Notes under the pieces: generated by a model
What the model saw: only the letters and a program-made list of their open reading frames with translations
What the model was told of the DNA's origin: nothing
The model's database searches: none
Translations under genes and position numbers: made by a program
Assembly: GCA_020536535.1 (NCBI GenBank)
Contig: JAHLWZ010000455.1
Span: 62,001-126,000, forward strand
Source: Pelomyxa schiedti
Taxonomy: Eukaryota; Protista; Evosea
Reading direction: 5' to 3'
Length of the DNA: 64,000 bases
In this document: positions 39,989 through 64,000 of the stretch, piece by piece
How the letters are laid out: every line of letters begins with the position of its first letter
Numbering within the stretch: position 1 is the stretch's first letter

Positions 39989-40066
39989 CCGCTTTTTTTC
40001 GTTGTTTATTAATCAACCCGCCGCAGATTCGGGTTGAAATCCTAACGACATTCCAGTAAAAAACCG

Positions 40067-42176
40067 ATGTTTGTTGGGTTAGTTTTAGGTTTGGCGTTGC
40101 TGTGTGCAACGTACACAAGTAACCTCCCCTGCTAGTTAAGTCTTGGTTTTTCTTTTTGTGACTTTTCTTGTTTTCAGCATCGGCGTATACTTCTGATTGG
40201 GAGTCGATTGACAGTCGCCCTTTGCCTTCGTGGTACGACGAAGCCAAGTTCGGGGTACTTTTCTTTTCTCCTCCTTTTCCCTTATTTGAATAACACTTTC
40301 ACAGATTTTCATACATTGGGGATTATATGCTGTGCCATCCTACGGATGCACTGAGTTTGGTGGTGCTTCTGGTGAATGGTGTGTCTCACTTTATTGCACT
40401 CTTAATCGGCGCGAAGGTATTGGTACGAATTGGACACTGAAAAAGAACCTTGTCTCGTTTCGTGGCACAGGAATACCTATGGAGACGATTTTACTTATGA
40501 AGGCACTCTACTCTATACAAATGCACAAAAATAACTTTCTATCAAGATTTTGCCAATCAGTGGAAGACAAGCATGTTCGACCCTGACGACTGGGCTGACA
40601 TTTTTGCTGGGTCTGGTGCCAAATACGTTGTTATGACATCCAAGGTCCCTATCTCGTTGGGACCTTTTTTTTTCTAAGACAAGAACGTAGCATCACGAAG
40701 GATTCTGCAACTGGAAGAGTGCACAAGTACTTCCTTGTACATTTCAAACAAGAGCTTATGACTTAACAGTCTTGGAACTGGAACTCTGTTGATTGTGAAC
40801 CACATCAAGACAACATGGCAATGGTTTCTAAAGCTGTTAAAAGGGCAGGACTACGCATGGGATATTATCACAGGTATCCCATTAAAAACTTACATAATTT
40901 TTTGATGAGTCTTGTAAAGTTTATATGAGTGGTACAATCCTCTCTATTTGGAGGATAAAGAGGTCAATGGGAACACAACTTACTACATTGACGAAGTACT
41001 TGTACCTCAAATGCACGATGTTGTGAACAACTATCAACCCGATATCTGGTGGTCTGATGGAGGCAAGTGTTTCCTGTAAAATGAATGGCAACTAACCCCC
41101 ACTCAAGATTGGGAGGTGGTCTTCTTTTCTTTACTTTATATCTGTTTCACAAATCCATCCACTTAGATGTATGACTCTTATTGGAGATCCACCGATTTCC
41201 TTGCATGGCTTTATAATGACAGCCCTGTTAAAGTTTGTTACCGCTGCTTTACAACAGAACAGCTTTTCCTAAAAAGACGCTCATAGGACACTGTTGTTGT
41301 AAACGACCGCTGGGGCATTAATGACAGCTGCGAGCATGGTGGATTTTACACGTGCTCTGATAGATATGACCCTGGAGTGCTGCAGCCTCACAAATGGGAG
41401 AATTGTTTAACTTTGGACAAACAATCCTGGGGGTGCGCATCAAAGAGGGACTTAAGATTTCTAACAAATGTCATAGGTACAGGCGAAATATGAAACTGGA
41501 AGATGTTATGACAATTGAGGAGCTTTTGGGCCACCTTGCATCTACTGTTGCTTGCAACGGAAACTTACTGTGAGTGTACTTCATCACAATCTTCCAGTCC
41601 TGACACACGTTAGGCTCAATGTAGGTCCGACAAGTGAAGGAATGATTGTACCAATATTCGAGGAGAGGTGTGTAACTTCCCATCTATACCAGGATGACCC
41701 TCCCTTCTAGGTTATCACAAATTGGAGAATGGCTGGAAGGTACTCCCAGAATCTATGAAACAACTTACTTGACTGAACTCTTTTTACAGTAAACAGTGAA
41801 TCCATTTTCGGAAGCTCACCATGGCGTGCCCAAAACGACACAGCCGCAAGTGTCTGGTATACCACACAACTCTCCACAGGCTATGTATATGCTATCTTCC
41901 TCTCGTGGCCTGCAAGCAATACAATTGTGCTGACTGAGCCAATCCCAACAGAGGTAAGTTTAAGTTTACCTTTAACCCACCCTTGGCTTCTGCTGTATCC
42001 CGGCAACCACACAACTAACAACATCACAGGACGTGACCACAGTGGAGCTCATTGGGTGGGGTACCCTTGATTGGCAACCCAGTGGCGGCTCCATGTCCGT
42101 CACTCTCCCTACCCTTACTGAGTCTCAGCTTCCCTCCAAATACGCCTGGGTTCTCAAGATCGCCAATGTCAAGTGA
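40067..42176 (+). CDS. Alpha-L-fucosidase (GH29), secreted/lysosomal; many short exons
   Basis: Signal peptide; [53 protein letters not shown] (nucleophile Asp), [24 protein letters not shown]. Confidence 0.93.
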
Positions 42177-42253
42177 AACCGACAACAAGGAAACAACAAC
42201 AAAACAAAAAAAAAAAAAAACCGAGAAAGGCATCAATTCGTTGAAACAGGGAG

Positions 42254-45185
42254 ATGACTGCACATGGCAACGACGGTGTGTCTGAGTGGCCCGACTTTGA
42301 AGCGATAGAGGAAGAGATACAAGAGGAGGTGGCCGTGGCGGAGGAACTAGGGAGTAACGGAAAGGCGTACAGTACTAGCAGCAGCCGGCAAGCAGAGCAT
42401 GAGCAAGAGCAACAGCATGAGCAAAAGGAGCAGGAGCAGGAGCAGGAGCACGAGCCGAGCCAGGAGGGCATCGTGGCAGCGCAGGACGACGAGGCAGAGG
42501 AGAACCAGTACGAGTACGAGTACGAGTACGAGCTGGAGGATGTGGACGTTGGAGAGGACAACGACCACGTGCCCCGCCTGGAGGGAGAAGGAGAAGGAGA
42601 TGGAGATGGAGATGTAGATGGAAATGCCGAAGAAGAAGAAGAAGGAGAAGAAGAAGAAGAAAGGGAAGGAGGCGAAGAAGAAGAAGAAGCAGAAGAAGAA
42701 GAAGTTGAGGAGGAGGAGGAAGAAGAAGAACAACTGGGGGAGCTGGGCTACGACGAAGCACCGGATGTGGAGGAGGTGTTGGAGTTACTCGACGAAGGCG
42801 CGGAGGTGGGCCAGCCAGCCGAGTACGAGTACGAGTACGAGTATGAGGAGGCCGCGGTGGAGCCGAGGGACTCGCACGGAGACGACGACGCGGCCGGCAC
42901 AGCAAGCGCGAGCACCACAGGGGCTGGGACTGAGGACGTGGCGAAGGGGACCGCCGCACCGGACGGCGCTGGGGAAGATCGCAGGGAGGAAGTCGCTATC
43001 TGGGACCCGGCGTACGGCGACGAGGAGGTGGAAACATGGCAAGACTTCGAGGAGGAGGAGTACGGCGAAGGCGCCTTTGCAAGTAGCGCGACCCACGCCA
43101 CCACCAGCGGTGGAACTGATAAGGGAGAGGACCAGGTCGGTGGCGAAGCAGTACGAGGTGAGGATGATGATGGTGTTGGTGTTGGTGTTGGTGATGGCGA
43201 TGGAGATGGAGATGGAGTGGCAGTTCATTCAGGGGGAAGTGATGACTTTGACTCTGCTTTGGAAGCAGATATAGTCAACGAACCACTGGGCACGGCTACT
43301 TCAGCTCTACATAACGAGTCCTCGGACTCAGAGGACAGGATGTGTGAAATATGCTGCAAACCGTTTCACCTATCTCGTTTTATCAAAGAATGGTACGCTT
43401 CCCGTTCGATCCCTTACCCGAATTCTTGTGTAGAATGTGATCAAGAAACCTTCAATCAACATTCTAGTCGCAAGCACACCCATAAGCATCCACTCCATCA
43501 TCCCCAATATAAAAATAGACAGAATGTCAACAAACCCAAATTTCTTCGTCACTCCAAGCATCACTTGCACAACTTGGAATCTAACAACTTGCCATCCCAT
43601 GGTAACACTGCAGCAAGCTCTGAACAATTAAACCATACCACACCCGACTTGCAAACAAATACACACAACCGCACCTCACCATTTCCCTCTTCTCGCACTC
43701 GTTCTTCAAATTATGGATCCAGCTTCAACTCTGTGCCTGTACAACTAACACCATTCACATCAGAACTCAAGTCAAGTATACCACTACCTCCCTCAAACAC
43801 TTCACTCGACATTGAATCCAACTCTCGTGACATAACTACTTGTACAGCACAGTCTTCTACAAGTGCATCTCAGCCAATTTCCCCCTCCCACACCATAAAT
43901 GACCTAGAGGTATTCTCCACTCTGGTTTCTTTACTGCCTAAACTCTCACTCCAGGATGGTATCAATGGTTGCCCGATATGCATGGAAAAGTGGCATGCCC
44001 CAATTTTCTTACTTCCGTGTGCACATTCACTTTGTGGGTCATGTGCTGATTCCATTCTACAAAAATCCCCTCAGGTTATCACACTGAAAACTTTTTTGTG
44101 GTAACTTGTTTTCATTATACAGTGTCCCCTATGCCGCACTCTAATCCCAGCGAAATCCACAAGCGATTTAAAGAGAAATTACCAGCTTGAGACCTTTTGT
44201 GAATACGTTCATGTACCCTCCCCTCCCACGGAATAATAGCGCACCCAAATATATCTTAAGCAAAGTCCAAGACCATCTACGAAAATTAAGCCAAGGAAGT
44301 CGTTATGTTCCGCACACAAAAAACCACTGAAGTATTACTGTGCGAACAGTACTTGCAGGTTGGATTACCGATAAAGGAGTCGCAAGTCCATTAAACGATG
44401 GCTTCCAGAATTCCAGTTTGTGTTGATTGTTTATTATATGGAGAACATAAATCACATCAAGCACAAGATCTCAAAAAAGCCGCCCAAGGTCATTCCCCTA
44501 ATATACGGTTTTTTAACTGAAATTCTGACTTAGATCAACAACCCCTGTTAAAAGATTTGTACACCCAATTGGCGGCAAGGAAAACCGAGGTTTCACTTCC
44601 ATTCAGCTATCTTTCCTTACCAAACAAAAACTAAAATGTATAACACAGCTCAGACAGTTGCAGCTTAAACTCGAAAGTCAAATATCAACACTACAGAAAA
44701 AGAAGCTTCAAACCGCCACGGCAGCAAATAGAGCAGAACGCCTTATCTACGATTCACTGGCAAGCAAATTCGCTGAAATGAGAGATGAACTGGATAATGC
44801 ATTCACCTCCGCCACCTTACAGTGCCAGCGATCAATTCGCGAAACTGATGAGATGATATCGCTGGTTACATGTGCGTTCCCGATGACAGGTTCTGTCCCA
44901 GATAGAACGGAGGACGATCCGGTTTCAGTTGTGAGTTCTGTTCAGGCCATTATTGATGCCCTTGAGACAAGCAATCTCGTGAAGCAACGCGGTTCTGAGG
45001 TGTCATCCCCAGATATTCTCCAGATGCCTGGTGTACAACAGCCTTCCCAGAAGAGTCGAAATTCAAACAGTGAGGATATTGCCTTGAAAGTACTGTCTAC
45101 ACAAATTCTCACACTTGGATCACACGTGATTAATCTGGGAGACATAGTGAAGGACTTGTTATCCTCAACCACAAACAAACCCTAA
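42254..45185 (+). CDS. RING - B-box - coiled-coil (TRIM-like) E3 ligase with very acidic N-terminus and extra zinc ribbon; multi-exon
   Basis: RING CPICMEKWHAPIFLLPCAHSLCGSC...CPLC; B-box CSAHKKPLKYYCANSTCRIPVCVDCLLYGEHKSH; coiled coil at 44530-44860. Confidence 0.85.
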
Positions 45186-54980: not shown

Positions 54981-57191
54981 ATGGACTCAACGAATCGGTA
55001 CGGGTACGAGGAGCCGAGTAAGGAGAAACAGCACAAACACCACAGGCATAAGCAGGAAGAAGCCGGGAGAAGTGACAGCAGTGGCAGCGTGACCAGCGGG
55101 ACGAGTGACGTCACGGGTGCGGCCAGCGGGGGTGATTGCACACAGATCTCCCCTTCATTTCCTACGTCACCACCACCTACACCTACACCTACACCTACAC
55201 CTACACCTACACCTACATCTACATCTACATCTACATCTACCTCGACGGTTCCATCCACCGCTGCGTCTGCATCGGCATCGGCAACGGCATCGGCGTCCCT
55301 TGTTTCCTCTGCATCTTGTGTCCAGTTGGCACCTTCCTCCATGTTACTTGATGATGTAATTCCTGGAGAAAGATTAGGCGGTATTTTTCTTTTCTTTTTC
55401 TTCTTCTTTTTCTTTTTCCTTTTCCTTTGTACTAACTACTGGACAAGAGGGTGCCTTTGGAATGGTCTTCCAAGGTTTGTTACTCTAAAAAAGCTTCCTA
55501 CTTTTCTCTGAAGCCTTTTTTTTTTTATTATTGTATTTCAAATCCAGGAATTTGGGCTGATAGTACTTCAGTGGCCATGAAGCTTATAGCTGGAGAAGAC
55601 GCAAATACCGAAGCTGAGGCAACAGTCCTCAGCCAGTTGCATCACCCAAACATTGTCCAAGTATCACAGCTTACACAGTTTCTTTAGAATTCTTAATTTC
55701 TATCTAAGTTTTTTGGTCTTAGTCGGTATCAAAGTAAATTGTACATAGTCACAGAGCTTGCAGAAGGCTCACTGCTAGATTTACTGAGGTATGATGACTC
55801 AATCCCATTCAAGACATTACTTGACATGATATTGCAGGTATGGATATTTTAGTTTTATTTCCATCTTACTGAGTTTTAGGCTCTGTCAGGAATGATTTAT
55901 TTAGCCAATAAAAATATTATACATCGAGACCTTGCTTGCAGGTGGTTTGCATCTTTCCCTACATTTTTATCTCTTGACCTTGGTAGAAATCTACTTTATC
56001 AGCGAGAGCACCAAAAGATACGAATAAAGGTTATTGTACTGGTAAGTTGACAACTTCCAATTAACATTTTTCTATTCAGATCTCTGACTTTGGTCTTAGT
56101 CGGTTCTCAGACTGTATTTTGAATCACTTATCAAATTAAATCTCATTTAAAACGCATCAAGCACTGTACACCTCCAGAACAGGAGAATTGCCAATAAGGT
56201 ATGCCTTCATCTATTAGTTCTCTGCCTTCATCTTCCTTTTTTTTCTTAGATGGTCTGCACTTGGTAAGACAAAGGAGGGATTTTGGCTCTGACACTCACT
56301 TTACACAGAGGCGCTTCTCTACCACCAGTTCAGCACGAAGAGTGATGTCTGGAGCATGGGTACTCCGCCTCTTCCTGTTTTCAGCCTATTTAAAACCCTA
56401 TCTTTCAACCAGGGATTACAATGTGGGAGGTTACATTTGAATGGTGATCAGTGATTTGTTTATAGTTATTAGATACTATCACGAGGAATAGTACCATACA
56501 CTGAGTTGTCCAACAAAGAAGTCATAGAATACTTAAAAAAGGGAGGGCGCCTGTCTCCCCCCACAGATGACACGCCACCTGAAGTTTTCCAGTTAATGAG
56601 TGACAGTTGGGATAAAAATCCAAACAACAGGCCATCCTTCTCCATAATGCATAGCAAAATGAAAGAGTACATTTCAAACCATGCAGACACACCCAATAAC
56701 ACCCAACCAATTCCACTGCCACCAAAAAGCACATCAAATTCCTCTAACAGTAAAGACTCACCAAATACATCTGCTTCTCCTACCTCAGTTCCATTGCCAT
56801 CTCTTTCCCCTGTAACAACGTCTGCAACCATAATTCCTTCATTTAGTCCTACACCAACAGCTTACAGTACTGGACTACAAACTTCACAAGAACGCACCCC
56901 AAACAGCGCAGTGTTATCCAACAAAGGGTGTGGGATACAGTTAACACCCGACTCCCAATGTGGAGAAGCAAATAAATACTGTTGGTCTTGCAAGTATTGT
57001 CCAGTTAGTAAATATTCAACTGAATTTGCCATAGAATCCGCTCTCTAAGGAATGAATACGACTGCTCAGTGAAGTCCTTCCCACTTAAGTCGAAATTATT
57101 TGATGATGCCTTTGCGAATTTTATCCACAAGTTACCTAAAAGCAACCGAGTACAAACAACAAACAATAATAAGCAAACAAAGATGGATTAA
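54981..57191 (+). CDS. Cytoplasmic tyrosine kinase; multi-exon, 3' end uncertain
   Basis: GEGAFG, VAMK, HPNIVQ, HRDLACRN, DFGLSR, LPIRWSALE, SDVWSMG, RPSF; no signal peptide or TM segment. Confidence 0.88.
55175..55241 (+). repeat. Coding hexamer microsatellite (CCTACA)n switching to (TCTACA)n
   Basis: Encodes PTPTPT...STSTST in the kinase N-terminus. Confidence 0.85.
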
Positions 57192-57338: not shown

Positions 57339-58298
57339 ATGGTTGAAGGCTACTTTTCTTTCCCTCCACAAGTTGGAGGCTCATCTGAAAGTAGAGTCAA
57401 AGTGTGGATATTCTTGTTTCCTGCATTTGCCTCTTTATTAATGTGCGCTTAGTTGCTCAGTATCACTGATGATATAATAGACAGATTACTCTCATATTGC
57501 TTGAGCACTGAGTATTCACAAATTCTACCAAGTTGTTTTTCGATGTCACCCTAATTCTAATGACATGTAGTTATACGACAATTTTTTGTGGTAAGCAAAG
57601 AAAAGGGAATGCTATCTCGAAGACAACTTGCAGTTGTGAGAGCCAAACTCTTATTTGAGTCCTCAAAATACTCCGGGGATTCCCTTGTCAATAATGTCTG
57701 GTTCAGGGGTTGAACTGTTACTGTTTCCTCACACTTACCATTAGGTTCCTTGGCGAAAACTACTACTGAAGGGACTTCCCACACATCTTGTCGTGGGGAA
57801 TGAATATAAATATGTAGGCGTGTGTAATATTCCATATAAAATGGTACCTACCCTTCGCACACCCGTCTTTATTGATGTTTTCCGGAAGGAGATACACAAT
57901 TGGACAGTATACGTTCGGTGTTTGGAGGGAAATATATCCGATCTAATTGAATATGTAGTATTTTTCTTGCATCCCACTTTTATGCCAAAGAGAGTCACAA
58001 TAGAGCAGGTGTGCCAAAATAAAGGGAATCTCACTGGTGTCGTAAATATGAATACTAAGTAATCTTTAGGCACCATTCCAACTCGCCCGAAGGGGATGGG
58101 GGACATTTACTGTCAAAATGGAAATCCACTTCATTCCCGAACTTTGTCAGACACCCCTCAAGTGAGTAAACTTCTCCAGATATATTAACTCACACCAAAC
58201 TAACCAAGAAACTCAACAGACTACAACACACACTCGTTTTTGAGGAAGGCGGTGCGTCATCTACCCATGTATGGTTCAAAGAAAAATTTAGATACTAG
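57339..58298 (+). CDS. YEATS-domain protein with possible N-terminal F-box-like motif; multi-exon, ends approximate
   Basis: YEATS: LVVGNEY...HNWTVYVR...IEYVVFFLHPTF...APFQLARRGWGTFTVKMEIHF...HTLVF; upstream exon LLSITDDIIDRLLSYCL. Confidence 0.75.
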
Positions 58299-58370
58299 AA
58301 ACCAAGAGATTCACGAAAAGGCACAACAATCATGCAACGCAGAAAACAAATTGGGAAGACAAGGAGAAGC

Positions 58371-58907
58371 GAACACCCATAAGTACCGGTGAGGATAATT
58401 TTTAGAGACGAAAAGAATGTTACTCGGGGCAAACAAATGGTGGGAAGCGAAAGAGGTGTGCTACTTCGTAATTAACTCGACAAGCTTCGTCGTATTGCTG
58501 TGAACGTTGACACCCCAACAACAACAACAGAATAATTTACCTGAAATAAATTGATTTTCAAATCCTTCGAATTTTGGCCTCGAACAACTTGACTTCCATC
58601 GAATTTTCCGAGGCCTTGATTTTCCTCCAGGGGGCTCATCTCAAGCCGGTGCCTCTGAAATTCTCTGCCAATTCTGTCCTCTGCGGCAAATTTGTGGGTT
58701 CGATTCCCCTCCCCCGTGGGATCTCCCCCCCCCCGTTCGTGCTCTCTGTGCCCGAGATTTCTTGGGACAGGGAGCTGGGTGGGTGGGGGTGGTCTCTTGG
58801 CGGGGGTGGGGTGGTCGGATCTGTGCCCCACGACAATTGGAAGAGGTTGCGGGGGTGCTGGTGGGTCTCCTTGGGGTTGCACATCTCACAATCTTCTCAT
58901 CTTTTTT
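58371..58907 (+). repeat. ~540 bp dispersed repeat with Pol III B-box and tRNA-like core, copy B
   Basis: Inverted relative to 45292-45831; GGTTCGATTCC at 58697-58707; ends in CTTTTTT. Confidence 0.85.
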
Positions 58908-59416
58908 CTTTCTGATCGAGTCCTGGTTTTGTGTGTAAAAATGTAAAGCTTCCTAGACTCCATGTTGTTCCCAAGTCACTTCAAAATGAGGGTAGATGTT
59001 CCTTTGAAAAAATGGTGATGCAGGTCAGACAAGGAAAAGAGGTATTTCTCACGAAGTTCAACAATAGGTGCCTCAACTGTGGTACTGGTGACTACAGGTT
59101 GTCCACATGCCAGAGTTACAGGCATACACCTGACCCATACTGGAAACTGCAACTTCCAAAATTTTATGAGCCTAGTTGCCGGGAGCAGATTAGCGTCGTT
59201 TTTGACATCATGCTTTCTGACTTTTGTAATTTGTGGAGTGTTTGTTGAATTTGGGATTCTGGTGTGGTGCATGTGCCACTTTGGACCCATCAGGCCCCTG
59301 GCTTCCTTGGCGTGTTACTTGATTCTCTCACACGTGGCTGAGTCACGCTTGCACGGTGCATCCAAACAGTTTTGGTTTGTCTTCCACGAAATATCCTTTT
59401 GATTGCTTGCTGTTCT

Positions 59417-62400
59417 ATGTGGAACAAAAAGCGAGTTGATTGCGGACGGGCTGCGTTTGTTGACGTGGGAGTGGCGTTGTTGTTTTCAGTGGGTGCAGGC
59501 TTCATTCTGATCATTTTTTTATTGGCGTTCACTTTCAGCCAAAAAATGTAAAGCTACTGCTCACTCATGGGATTCTCTGTCACCCATCTTAACCCTCTCA
59601 CGGTTTTCCTTTTCAAGGTATTCTTCCCTGGTGGAAATTACAAACGAAGCTATTGAAAGGGCAACAATGAAAGCTACCGCAAACCTTGAGACACAGCACC
59701 GGGGAATCCATTTTGCCCTGGATACATACTCTTCCATGTTCGTCAATGCACTGGAAACCCCACGTGTGCCGGCAACGGGGGCGGAATTGGCTTCGTACTC
59801 CCTGAGGAACGCTAGCTTTCCACAGTGGAATGGCTCTATTTATGCCTCATTTGAGGACTTTGGCGGACCTGCAACTGTGCTATGGCATGCAGAAAGGTTT
59901 GTTGTGACTCCTCCCTGCCAACTTACTTTTTTTTTTGTTTCCCTTCCTCAACTTGATTGAAGATACAACCAATCACAGTTGGACAAGCTAATAGATGTGC
60001 TATTTTGGCGCACAGGGGGACTTGGCCCTATAATGTCCGGCCTCATGGAAACGTGGAGTAGTACTGTTTCTCAGATGTATTCAGTTGTTGGGACCTATAC
60101 CCTCATGTATCCATATTACCCGATGTTTGAGTTCTATGTAGACCTCGAAAACAATCCCAGGGTAATGGCCTTAGATCCTCTACACAACCCCTCGCGAGCA
60201 TTCCTTTTAACTCCAGCTTACCTTGACCAACACGGACTCTGGACTGTTACACTCGCTACTCCAATGTACAGCAGTGATGATTCATATATTGGCCTTGCTG
60301 GATTCGACATCCGTCTGACTCGATTTCTGGACTGCATCGAGCATGCCGGTGGTTTTATTCCATTTGATGCATATGTAGTTATCCTTTCCACCACGGGCAC
60401 CCTCCTTTTCGTACCACCGAAAGGTGCAAGCGATTGGGCTCCTGGTCTTTCCAACTTCTCATTTGATAGAATCAGTGGAGATGCAAAATTCAATGAAACG
60501 TATTGGAACATTCTCACAAACCCCCTCTACGCTGAGGTTGCACAGTCCGTTTGCGACTCATCGTATAGCAACAAATGTGTGGCCACCGAAACAGGACACA
60601 ATGAGGTCCACTTGTGTGGAAACAAGCGCCTCATTTCGTGGCAGGCTCTCCTTGATTATTGGATCGTCATTTGTGTTGCAGATAGAGACAAAGCTGTGGC
60701 AGTGCAAAGAAAAGCCAAGTGGATCAATCTTGTAGTATCTTCAACTCTTGGGCTAGTTGTTGCTCTTGCTGCAGTGGCATGTATTTTCGACATATTTTTA
60801 CTCGTTTATATCTAACATCCTTGCTCAACCAAAACAGAGTATTGCCGCCTATGTGATTAAAAGAATGCAAAACCGAAGTATGTCCAATAAAATAAATGAC
60901 CTGCATGCACAACTGGACAAAGAAAGGCACAGTCACCTCCTCGTTTCAGACAACAACGGGGAAAAGGATACAAAGGGCTTAACTGGTAACATACACAATG
61001 TATGGAAGAAACCATTTCGTCGTAAGTCTTAGCAATGAACACAGATAGTTGAGACACTTAAAGGCCTCTGTGGCCAACTGGATGATGAGGACAGTTCCAT
61101 TGTTCAGGAGGCCATAGCACTTCTTGTTCACAGGGATTTTTCTGGTATCATCCCCCCAGCGTACACCGAAGTTATTTAAACTCACAATTGCTGCTAGTTG
61201 TGCACCCCCGCGCTCCATTGAATGAGACTCAAAAGCGATTCATCCATGATTGTGGAATCGATGTGCAGGAAAGTGGAAAAGAACCCCCACGTTCGGCGTC
61301 AGGTCCCCCGACTCACCGAGAACTAAGTCACGGTAACAAGGAAAACCTTGCGGCTGTTTTCTATATTGCTCGCAGTGCAGATATCAACAAGTGGGACTTC
61401 AGTGTTTTTGAGTATGAGGTAGAGAAATTCGTAATAATATTTTTTTCACTGGTCATTTAATTCAATATGTAGAAAGAAACTAAGAAGACTGGTTTGTGTT
61501 CTAGCAGTCCTGGGCTTTTACCTTGCCTTCTTTTTGCAATATTGAAGCAGTGGAAACTGTTCAAGTGTCTTGATATCGACAAACATAAGCTTCTTAATTT
61601 CGCCCATGCTCTGGATTCGGCCTACTGCTATGGCCAGGAGCATGGTGCTGAAGAGAATCCTTATCACAACCGCCTTCATGCCGCTGATGTGATGCACTCC
61701 ATGTTTTACATGCTCAATGTAGCTCGGCGTTGCTCACAGCCTCTGGACGAGGTTATCACGCCTCTGGATTTGCTTGCTTGTACTATTGCCGCACTCATTC
61801 ACGATTTCAAACACCCTGGCAGGAACAATAATTTTCTCAAAGTTACATTACATAAAATACACACATCGTATGGGGATTCAGTATTGGAAAGGCATCATCT
61901 CAACATGGCATTTGGCCTTCTTTTTGATGAAAGCAAAAACTGCAATGCACTTGCAGGGATGCCTATATCTCAGCAGATAGAATTTCATTCTCTCGTAATG
62001 GAACTTGTATTAGCAACAGATATGGCCAAGTACGTCTCCAGCCTGTGCAAATTAATTCTCACCACTTTTTTTTATTTTATTATTCTTATAATAATACCCA
62101 CAGGCATGTTGAAATTCTCGACTCTTTCCGGTCCTGGTTCAGCACACAGTCAAGGCCACCTTCTTCTGGTGATCCAGAGATCCCCCCTTCGCCACTCATA
62201 CCTTTTATCGACGGAAGAGGGAAGCTTCTTGTATTGCAAGTACTCATAAAAGCGGCGGACTTGTGCAACGTATTTAGAAAGTGGCAAGACTGTAAAACGT
62301 GGACGATGATGCTCGCCAGAGAGCTGTTGCAGCAAGGACAAGATGAAGCAAGAATAGGGCTTCCTGTTTCTCAGTTTATGGATGGGTCTCTTCCCCCGGC

Positions 62401-62597
62401 TGAAGTGCAGGTAAAAAATAGAAAGTACTTCCTTCAAACCAACATAACCACAGATAACGTTCATTCCACTAATGGTTCTACCACTACTGCACTCCATTGT
62501 GGCCCTCTTCCCAGATCTTAAAGATCTTGAGAAAGAAGCATGTGCAAACTTGAGGGAGTGGCGAAACGTACTCAGTGGGAAGCCTGGTGCACCATGA
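59417..62597 (+). CDS. Transmembrane class I cyclic nucleotide phosphodiesterase with extracellular dCache-like domain; multi-exon
   Basis: TM1 (VALLFSVGAGFILIIFLLAF); Cache motif TPAYLDQHGLWTVTLATPMY...YIGLAGFDIRL...YVVILSTTGTLLFVP; TM2; PDE motifs NPYHNRLHAADV, HDFKHPGRNN, VLERHH, LATDM, KAADLCN, EVQ. Confidence 0.88.
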
Positions 62598-62889
62598 CAT
62601 TTGTAAAAAACCAAAAAAAATGATATTGTACAAGATGGCCCCTGCTTGTGGTGTAAAAAGAATAGAGAAAAAGAACGGAAGATTTACGTGCCTTTAGTAG
62701 ACACGAGTTTTATTTAACGTTTAAATAAGCGCTACATAGATCAGGGGGTTAGTGGTGTCAAAAGGGTGATGTAATTAGCAGGTGTCAAATCCAGATTTGG
62801 ATCAGTTGTAGTTGTCTTTCAGTTAAGACGTTTTGGCAGATCTCAAAAAAAAAGTGAAGATCTCAAAGCGGTGCTCACTGCTCGCGAGT

Positions 62890-64000
62890 ATGAACGGGGA
62901 GCTGTTAAGGATTGTGGCGTGTATAATTGTGCTGTGGACTGGAGCCACATGCGGATCTAAGAGTAAAGGAGCGTGCCAATTTGGGCTGTGCTATACTTTG
63001 AACAAGGCCGACTGCTTAAACGATCAAGAGTGCGCTTGGAATGCAGAATGGGAATGTGAAGTGGACAACTGCTTGGCATCTTTGTCAAAAACTGAATGTC
63101 ACTGGGATCCAAGGTTTGTACAAAGTGTTGGCTTTTCTTTTAATCTTTTTTTCCGTTAGATGCTTCTGGGGTACCTGCTTATTGTGAGTGGTAAAGGCGA
63201 ATCTTACCGGGTTTTAGATTCTGGTATTTGTCGTTCAACGTGTTTGCATCATGCAAAATCGCGTCAAGAGTGTGAGATGTATAATGAATGTAAGTGGTCT
63301 GCTTCCACAAAGGACAAAAAAGAAGACAAGGCCGCCTGTATCCAGAAGAGGTTAGAGAGATTGTTCTTACCTATTTCTAATGCAGCTTTTTAAGCTATGG
63401 CAATGCATCTTGTCTCAAGTCTGCCTCTTAGTGCTTAGTTCTACTATTTTTGTAAAGAAATTTCCAGATTCAAGTCGGCAGAAACATGTTTGGCAGATTT
63501 TTGCTATTGGGACTATTTCACAAATACCTGTATGAGGATTTATTTCGTGGTGGTTTTGGCTCCCCATCATGAATAGGTAGAAAGCCCGGGACTACGGACA
63601 GGAAATGCGAGAATAAAAACTATACTGTATGAATTCTCCTTCAGGAAGTCTGTGGATAACAAGAATGCGTGTAGGAATGTCTTGATAATAAAAAATGCAT
63701 GTGGGTTCCATCTGATGGAGTACTCGCAATTGGTATGTTACCTTAATTCCGTTCTTGGGATAAAACTGTTGCACAGAAAAGTGCACTCCTGATCAGTGTG
63801 CACTTCTGAGTAAAAGTCGGTGTCGAAAGGCTTGGTCAGTGTGCTCATGGAATGCAACATCGAGGACTTGCAGGTGAGACTGAGGTGTTCTGATTAGTTT
63901 GACTAAAAATGTCAAAGGAACTTATGTGCCGGAAATGATATCAATATTTGTTCCAAGAATCCCCAGTGTGTATGGGTTCAACCATATGATGACATACAGG
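62890..64000 (+). CDS. Secreted/surface cysteine-rich repeat protein (partial, runs off window)
   Basis: Signal peptide MNGELLRIVACIIVLWTGATCG then repeated C-x7/8-C-x5-C-x-W units split by short introns. Confidence 0.7.

Follow-up and report, generated by a model that had tools for sequence, protein, structure and literature searches.

The window analysed here, 64,000 nucleotides (nt) of the amoeba Pelomyxa schiedti (positions 62,001 to 126,000 of the forward strand of contig JAHLWZ010000455.1, GenBank assembly GCA_020536535.1), contains at 59417 to 62597 a gene whose predicted product joins a double Cache (dCache) sensor domain, held between two transmembrane (TM) helices, to a coiled coil and a class I cyclic-nucleotide phosphodiesterase (PDE). 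This architecture is real, is repeated in an amoebal family and is apparently undescribed; the case is strong for the family and uncertain for this copy. The reading that we favour, at a probability of a little under 60%, is that the gene is a member of this dCache-TM-coiled coil-PDE family and that its product likely works as a dimeric receptor of the one-component type: a small ligand outside the cytosol would alter the breakdown of cyclic adenosine monophosphate (cAMP), provided that some of the transcripts use a predicted GC splice donor at 60777. The first-pass annotation of this DNA had placed all of these parts in one gene, which holds for the gene model and for the family and fails for the sole transcript, whose reading frame stops at 409 amino acids (aa).

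The gene model has nine exons, running from the ATG at 59417 to the TGA at 62597, with introns of 43-74 nt of the spliced eukaryotic type. It encodes about 904 aa, in the order TM1 (~12-45), a 342-aa ectodomain, TM2 (~390-416), a coiled-coil-like helix (~417-440) with a heptad-like segment directly after TM2, a conserved helical linker (461-516), a variable stretch and the class I PDE (~554-895). Four sequencing runs of one sample cover the region; runs X1 to X3 are unspliced and X4 is spliced, and X4 is taken as complementary DNA (cDNA) from its joints and adaptor, no run being recorded as RNA. A single X4 cDNA contig (record 16, with the template-switch oligonucleotide at 59394) spans 59394-62626 and agrees with seven of the eight modelled introns, six of them listed as joints and intron 7, at a repeat, read from the piece table. 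This contig covers the gene from end to end and so places the exons for sensor and PDE in a single assembled transcript, which speaks against two separate genes; the join across 60770-61500 is likewise found in cDNA, although intron 3 within it is spliced out of frame. The gene model is also supported by two Mastigella isoforms that apparently retain an intron, because their breaks coincide with introns 4 and 8 (P0020; P0011 with P0012); intron 3 is not among the positions on which they bear. The features of the gene are as follows.

59394 to 59416, + strand: cDNA 5' end and 23-nt leader without an upstream ATG (template-switch loose end at 59394 in run X4; sequence)
59417 to 59547, + strand: exon 1, basic N-terminal tail and TM1, a predicted signal anchor at aa ~12-45 (model, cDNA, topology)
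59618 to 59896, + strand: exon 2, long first helix and N-terminal portion of the dCache ectodomain (model, cDNA; helix 11-95 in the model of paralogue P0007)
59963 to 60776, + strand: exon 3 in its in-frame form, distal and proximal Cache modules with Y223, D225 and D252, start of TM2 (AlphaFold, folded to 60773; Foldseek; VIA)
60777 to 60786, + strand: two splice donors in tandem with a 4-nt offset, the predicted in-frame GC at 60777 and the out-of-frame GT at 60781 that the cDNA uses (cDNA, donor scoring)
60777 to 60837, + strand: intron 3, predicted as a GC-AG intron of 61 nt and observed as a GT-AG intron of 57 nt that begins at 60781 (model, cDNA)
60838 to 60999, + strand: exon 4, end of TM2 and coiled-coil-like helix at aa ~417-440 (sequence, family alignment)
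61045 to 61144, + strand: exon 5, family-conserved helical linker, within aa 461-516 (family alignment)
61198 to 61418, + strand: exon 6, end of the linker, disordered stretch and start of the PDE domain at ~61371 (model, cDNA, family alignment)
61473 to 62029, + strand: exon 7, PDE core with YHN, HAAD, HD, H-loop, E708/H711 and T751 (Pfam PDEase_I, E 4e-35)
62104 to 62410, + strand: exon 8, D752, D807, N810 and the invariant Gln857 (Pfam, family alignment)
62454 to 62597, + strand: exon 9, final helices of the PDE and the TGA stop; the cDNA runs on to 62626 (model, cDNA)

Between runs of the same sample the gene carries variant letters at 62034 (intron 7 donor, +5), 62196 (Leu786Pro, in a Pro/Ser-rich loop) and 62594 (silent). 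These probably represent a second haplotype, and both exonic ones are present in cDNA.

Judged from its sequence, the enzymatic part is a class I cyclic-nucleotide PDE. Pfam PDEase_I (PF00233) matches two PDE-bearing frames with E-values of 4e-35 and 3e-13 (122 and 50 bits, where the curated cut-off is 24.8). The motifs YHN, HAAD, HDxxHxGxxN, TDM and ADLCN and the invariant Gln are present, so that the metal ligands and Gln are intact as had been claimed from the letters, and all 17 catalytic or pocket positions checked carry the expected residue, most of them invariant in the family. Metal ligands, catalytic His, Gln and hydrophobic clamp are present as H634, H638, H679, D680, D807, Q857 and F860, in roles that we take to be those of the corresponding PDE4 residues. 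The two grounds for inferring a preference for cAMP are N810, presumably a position that marks this preference, and the best solved matches of the paralogue catalytic domain in the PDB, which are PDE4- and PDE8-type enzymes. PDE4_UCR had no match in the Pfam scan of 17 family members. Homology of the linker to the pre-catalytic helices of other PDEs was considered and is unsupported (hhalign 8.4, shuffled 5.5-14.1, five poorly alignable PDEs). The closest paralogue, P0007 (KAH3744580.1), deviates in its PDE (Asp to Ala in HAAD, Asp for the Asn after ADL, an altered M-loop) and also in its linker, and may be weakened or changed in specificity.

The ectodomain, as modelled, is clearly a divergent dCache by fold, in agreement with the first-pass call of a Cache sensor. 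AlphaFold folds exon 3 with a predicted local distance difference test score (pLDDT) of 91.8 from a 113-row alignment, and Foldseek relates this model to PctC at E 1e-9. In VIA the model matches PscC with a Z of 13.8 and a root-mean-square deviation of 2.8 over 193 residues, several other dCache domains tie with it, and Cache-type sensor domains make up most of the top 30 rows. Two tandem Cache modules follow a long helix and lie between two TM helices, the arrangement by which a dCache is recognized. In an Atlas feature search dCache clusters scored 0.94-0.96, and two other clusters ranked above them at 0.96-0.97. Sequence profiles see less of this: on exon 3 alone, Pfam dCache_1 gives E 0.02 and 14.7 bits against a curated cut-off of 45, MCP-like_PDC_1 gives E 3e-4 and is also under its curated cut-off, and the dCache_1 peak among family members is 23.3 bits. 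By sequence, exon 3 had no match in the PDB, and word-based protein searches with exon 3 among longer proteins and those of near length (148-473 aa) returned nothing, which is weak evidence given that HMMER obtained 171 matches. The profile of alignment A1 is dominated by kinase domains and was uninformative.

The putative binding pocket is conserved in part. Across 18 rows of the family alignment Y223 is kept in 14, D225 in 17 and D252 in 14; identity in the distal pocket is 27%. The amino-acid motif dCache_1AA reads YxxxxRxW[YF]...Y...D (PMC8915833), and residues were equated with it by sequence rather than by superposition. D252 is present at the final Asp position, where the purine sensor McpH has Gly; the purine motif dCache_1PU is given as Y, R, W, F, D/N (PMC11245519). 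Set against the description in words of the amine-sensor motif dCache_1AM (an aromatic cage plus a final Asp; PMC10589655), the final Asp and one aromatic are kept and the equivalent of the central W is Arg. Because the pocket keeps the amine-binding half (Y223, D225, D252) without RxW, a ligand with an amino group is suggested.

The architecture recurs in other proteins. HMMER with exon 3 gave 171 matches, of which 150 clusters are listed, and the family counts refer to those 150. Ectodomain, linker and PDE are common to 17 of them, comprising five from Pelomyxa schiedti, seven Mastigella eilhardi transcript open reading frames (ORFs) and five ENA or JGI proteins. By Pfam the fusion is a single ORF in 15 of the 17 representatives; of the remaining two, one is truncated at the start of the PDE and the other has the PDE in a longer cluster member. 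The family PDE profile had no match among the other 133 listed clusters, and all 12 non-family clusters scanned with Pfam are dCache_1 histidine kinases, four of which were looked up and carry bacterial names. The model is 27-40% identical to family members, with P0007 the closest. In a quick, unrooted tree of the ectodomain, built from 60 non-family rows and the 15 of 18 family rows that passed a length filter (P0017-P0019 did not), the family falls on one side of a branch with a Shimodaira-Hasegawa-like approximate likelihood ratio test value of 98. The tree fits a single acquisition; donor and direction lie outside what it shows. A metagenome scan with P0008 yielded none from 47 candidates, and one with the PDE exon found 49 loci, all of which lack the ectodomain and the linker of the family. 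The NCBI names of the P. schiedti members are PDE4, 7A or 1C only, and the sensor is absent from the annotation.

Basic residues stand before TM1 and after TM2, and over the 18 rows there are 71 N-glycosylation sequons among 6,120 residues of the ectodomain and 38 among 8,802 cytosolic ones, a 2.7-fold higher density in the ectodomain. Because of these basic flanks and the sequon excess, the sensor likely faces the exterior or the lumen of an organelle or vacuole and the PDE the cytosol; the two domains are predicted on opposite sides of the membrane, not on the same side, which would have spoken against a receptor. TM1 is detected in 13 of the 18 rows, and the spacing from TM2 to the coiled coil is identical in all 18. 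Mean identity is 36% in the coiled coil against 40% in the PDE. In the P0007 model TM1 continues into the first dCache helix, and TM2 continues as one helix into the coiled coil. Modelled as a homodimer, the cytosolic part of P0014 scores 0.62 against 0.00 for the best control, with at least 79% contact agreement and a partner pLDDT of at least 71; the mark that it passes is reached by 17 of 29 eukaryotic solved pairs, one of seven pairs without an older solved relative and none of 30 single chains, and the pass may reflect a resemblance to PDE dimers of known structure. The interface corresponds to aa 692-745 in the model, just past the HD-HPG-N motif, a region that we take to be the H-loop.

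In the mechanism proposed, TM1 would serve as a signal anchor that sets a glycosylated sensor outside or in the vacuole lumen and leaves the PDE in the cytosol, where the catalytic domains would pair via the H-loop region. The ligand would probably bear an amine, would not be of the canonical amino-acid-motif type and would vary between paralogues. Its binding would shift TM2 and the continuous helix and coiled coil below, as in bacterial dCache receptors. If the coiled-coil linker of PDE2A is a guide (PMC7590022), this shift would relax the pairing of the catalytic domains, and cAMP would be hydrolysed faster. Lower cAMP and protein kinase A activity would then favour feeding over encystation, the job of RegA in other amoebae (PMC3906536, PMC4758236, PMC4037983). 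Paralogues with divergent pockets could together form a small chemoreceptor repertoire.

Several points weigh against this reading. The sole cDNA contig removes 60781-60837 (57 nt, GT-AG), which shifts the frame at intron 3 and leads to a TAG at codon 410, right after TM2, and hence to a 409-aa product without the PDE. The form in this contig is probably the commoner one in run X4, and contigs lose rare variants. In the sensor, the dCache_1AA motif is incomplete, with no RxW in the ectodomain and only the Y and D half kept. TM1 is missing from five of the 18 rows (probably incomplete ORFs), and TM2 of P0015 falls under the hydrophobicity cut-off used. About 35 residues ahead of the PDE are poorly conserved (10%), and the P0007 model has a predicted template modelling score of 0.44 with low-confidence linker stretches; a variable linker of this kind could uncouple sensor from enzyme. 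Confident dimer contacts are confined to the catalytic domain, with none in the coiled coil. Ligand control, the substrate, the sign of control and the link to encystation are proposals.

The full fusion requires a donor other than the observed GT. The best is the GC at 60777, 4 nt upstream of the GT and absent from the observed RNA. The protein that it would yield aligns gap-free to all 17 homologues over aa 380-440 (TM2 and coiled coil). With the dinucleotide ignored, GC 60777 scores 3.54 bits against 3.64 bits for GT 60781, on a matrix of 21 cDNA-confirmed donors (the seven other introns of the gene and 14 of 15 listed joints, 27 further joints lying outside it). One of these 21 donors is itself a GC, that of the GC-AG intron 40503-40546, across which the frame is open; this intron sits in a multi-exon + strand gene beginning near 40056 of the window. 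Other in-frame donors, at 60756, 60759, 60771, 60774 and 60804, were rejected (-1.4 to -5.3 bits, altered TM2 length), as was stop read-through or a variant genetic code, because the observed junction shifts the frame too. The in-frame GC form of this copy is well motivated, as a form predicted rather than observed. In the observed isoform the TAG spans the exon 3/4 junction; 25 nt past this stop, an ATG at 60865 opens a second ORF, 487 aa long, which contains the entire PDE. The out-of-frame transcript might be leakage of the tandem donor, or a means of dose control via mRNA decay.

The alternative that survives best, which we nevertheless consider rather unlikely, is that the family consists of real receptor PDEs and that this copy is largely disabled, its donor having weakened or the GT having taken over, so that nearly all of its mRNA is frameshifted and is degraded or translated into a useless fragment. 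GC is a weaker donor dinucleotide than GT, and the flanking sequences here score equally; the single observed transcript is out of frame, and several paralogues could compensate. Also in keeping with disablement, GYNNGY tandem donors are the commonest alternative 5' sites and their use is mostly noise or decay-coupled (PMC4267661). However, no stop or frameshift occurs elsewhere across the 904 codons of the in-frame model, and all checked catalytic residues are intact. The gene is transcribed and its seven other introns are properly spliced. Runs X2 and X3, which bear variant letters elsewhere in the gene, show no alternative letter around the donor, and GC donors function in this organism, as intron 40503-40546 attests.

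There is still less to recommend the idea that the dCache is a membrane anchor, dimerisation scaffold or partner surface, with a PDE that is constitutive or controlled from the cytosol and no ligand gating. It would account for a linker that is variable and partly disordered, for the lack of a complete known ligand motif and for the low identity of the distal pocket; it sits poorly with the retention of amine-side pocket residues in most paralogues, with the fixed register between TM2 and coiled coil and with nearest scanned non-family homologues that are, in 12 of 12 cases, dCache sensor kinases. Least probable is a regulated 4-nt donor choice that makes a PDE-less TM-dCache-TM decoy or dampening subunit, possibly with a soluble PDE from the second ORF: the stop near the end of TM2 does leave a self-contained sensor and the 487-aa ORF begins only 25 nt later, but five more junctions lie downstream and a stop upstream of several splice junctions is a typical target of mRNA decay, TM2 is shortened, the 148-473 aa search gave no stand-alone sensor form (weak evidence), none of the Mastigella isoforms examined ends at the same place, and re-initiation of translation after a long ORF is inefficient. 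Its remaining support is that regulated GYNNGY sites tend toward two similar donors, as found here (PMC4267661).

With bacterial dCache_1 one-component receptors (histidine kinases, cyclases and EAL/HD-GYP proteins; the solved sensors compared are PctA/PctC, PscC and mmHK1S-Z2) the protein shares the TM-dCache-TM-helix-output layout and the fold, but its output is a eukaryotic class I PDE (PF00233) rather than EAL/HD-GYP, its gene has introns, as a eukaryotic gene, and its amino-acid motif is incomplete. Coupling of dCache to cyclic di-GMP phosphodiesterases is documented (PMC8915833). Choanoflagellate RhoPDE is, like this protein, a membrane sensor fused to a cyclic-nucleotide PDE, although its sensor is an 8-TM light rhodopsin, whereas here a soluble domain of the ligand-binding type lies between two helices. 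PDB entries 5vyd and 7d7p, which we take to be RhoPDE, match the catalytic domain. In RhoPDE the sensor gates the fused PDE without a G protein (PMC7590022). The dCache fold is also common to alpha2delta/CACHD1 and their protist relatives (8s7c, Z 9.7), from which the family differs by the lack of a VWA insertion and by its enzyme output; no VWA is among the Pfam matches listed for the 17 members, and the 342-aa ectodomain is a continuous dCache match. According to one survey, every eukaryotic dCache_1 protein that it found has the VWA insertion (PMC8915833). The class I catalytic domain is shared with mammalian PDE4, PDE8, PDE7 and PDE2 and with amoebozoan RegA. In these enzymes, unlike here, control lies with cytosolic domains of the UCR, GAF, PAS or receiver type.

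The first-pass annotation had held that class I PDEs are usually controlled by cytosolic modules and that the membrane PDEs known to it do not use Cache. A general lack of Cache-type sensors in class I PDEs has to be qualified in view of one cluster in the ESM Atlas, made up of 151 eukaryotic PDEs with Chlorophyta as the commonest phylum (rank 1, score 0.90). PDEase_I is present in 100% and CHASE, presumably a Cache-superfamily domain, in 17% of its members. Compared at the level of the cluster, this CHASE is not dCache_1-like and the proteins are ~1,200 aa long, and the cluster is probably a separate fusion. It might constitute a second, independent receptor-PDE family. One eukaryotic enzyme with a Cache domain is an adenylate cyclase of an Excavate, presumably of the Naegleria type. 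The available part of the source places eukaryotic Cache domains in calcium-channel subunits, histidine kinases and this adenylate cyclase of a 'representative of Excavates', not in PDEs (PMC4822843). Protist PDE counts come without mention of Cache in the parts available of PMC4758236, PMC5804921 and PMC5447177, and what was available of PMC7700396 covers CHASE kinases only. Full-text literature searches, which did not extend to papers behind subscription or to the figures of PDE architectures that supplement PMC4758236 and PMC5804921, returned no description of Cache or CHASE with a class I PDE, and the term PDEase is absent from the supplements of PMC8915833 (6 files) and PMC4822843 (18 files).

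Other parts of the window gave observations of their own. At ~55880-57050 lies a tyrosine-kinase-like gene, whose cDNA (contig from 56332) has a microexon of ~14-16 nt between 56360 and 56471. At ~57745-58400 a reading frame with X4 cDNA cover resembles a YEATS-domain protein, on the basis of what we take to be a YEATS motif. Just downstream of the PDE gene, at 62827-63393 on the + strand, there are Cys-rich frames with short C-x-W repeats, possibly from a secreted or surface protein. Repeat stretches at 42188-42740 and nearby show small indels between runs.

In eukaryotes, outside chemical signals usually reach cAMP PDEs indirectly, through G proteins, kinases or phosphorelays, and the directly gated membrane PDE known to us is the light-sensing RhoPDE. 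If the receptor reading is true, the dCache-PDE family would be the chemical counterpart of RhoPDE, would mirror the receptor cyclases and would provide a clear example of a sensory module from bacteria that has been connected to a second messenger of eukaryotes. Ligand screens of dCache domains are routine, and a PDE gated by a ligand would be of use as a chemogenetic component; at the bench, an intact paralogue such as KAH3745332.1 or KAH3762352.1 is a safer starting point than this copy. The chances are about even that pelobiont amoebae grafted a horizontally acquired, bacterial kinase-type dCache onto a eukaryotic cAMP PDE, and so gained a repertoire of ligand-gated receptor PDEs, possibly reading metabolites of prey or endosymbionts into cAMP. 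The family members would then offer entry points into the sensing of food and symbionts by anaerobic amoebae.

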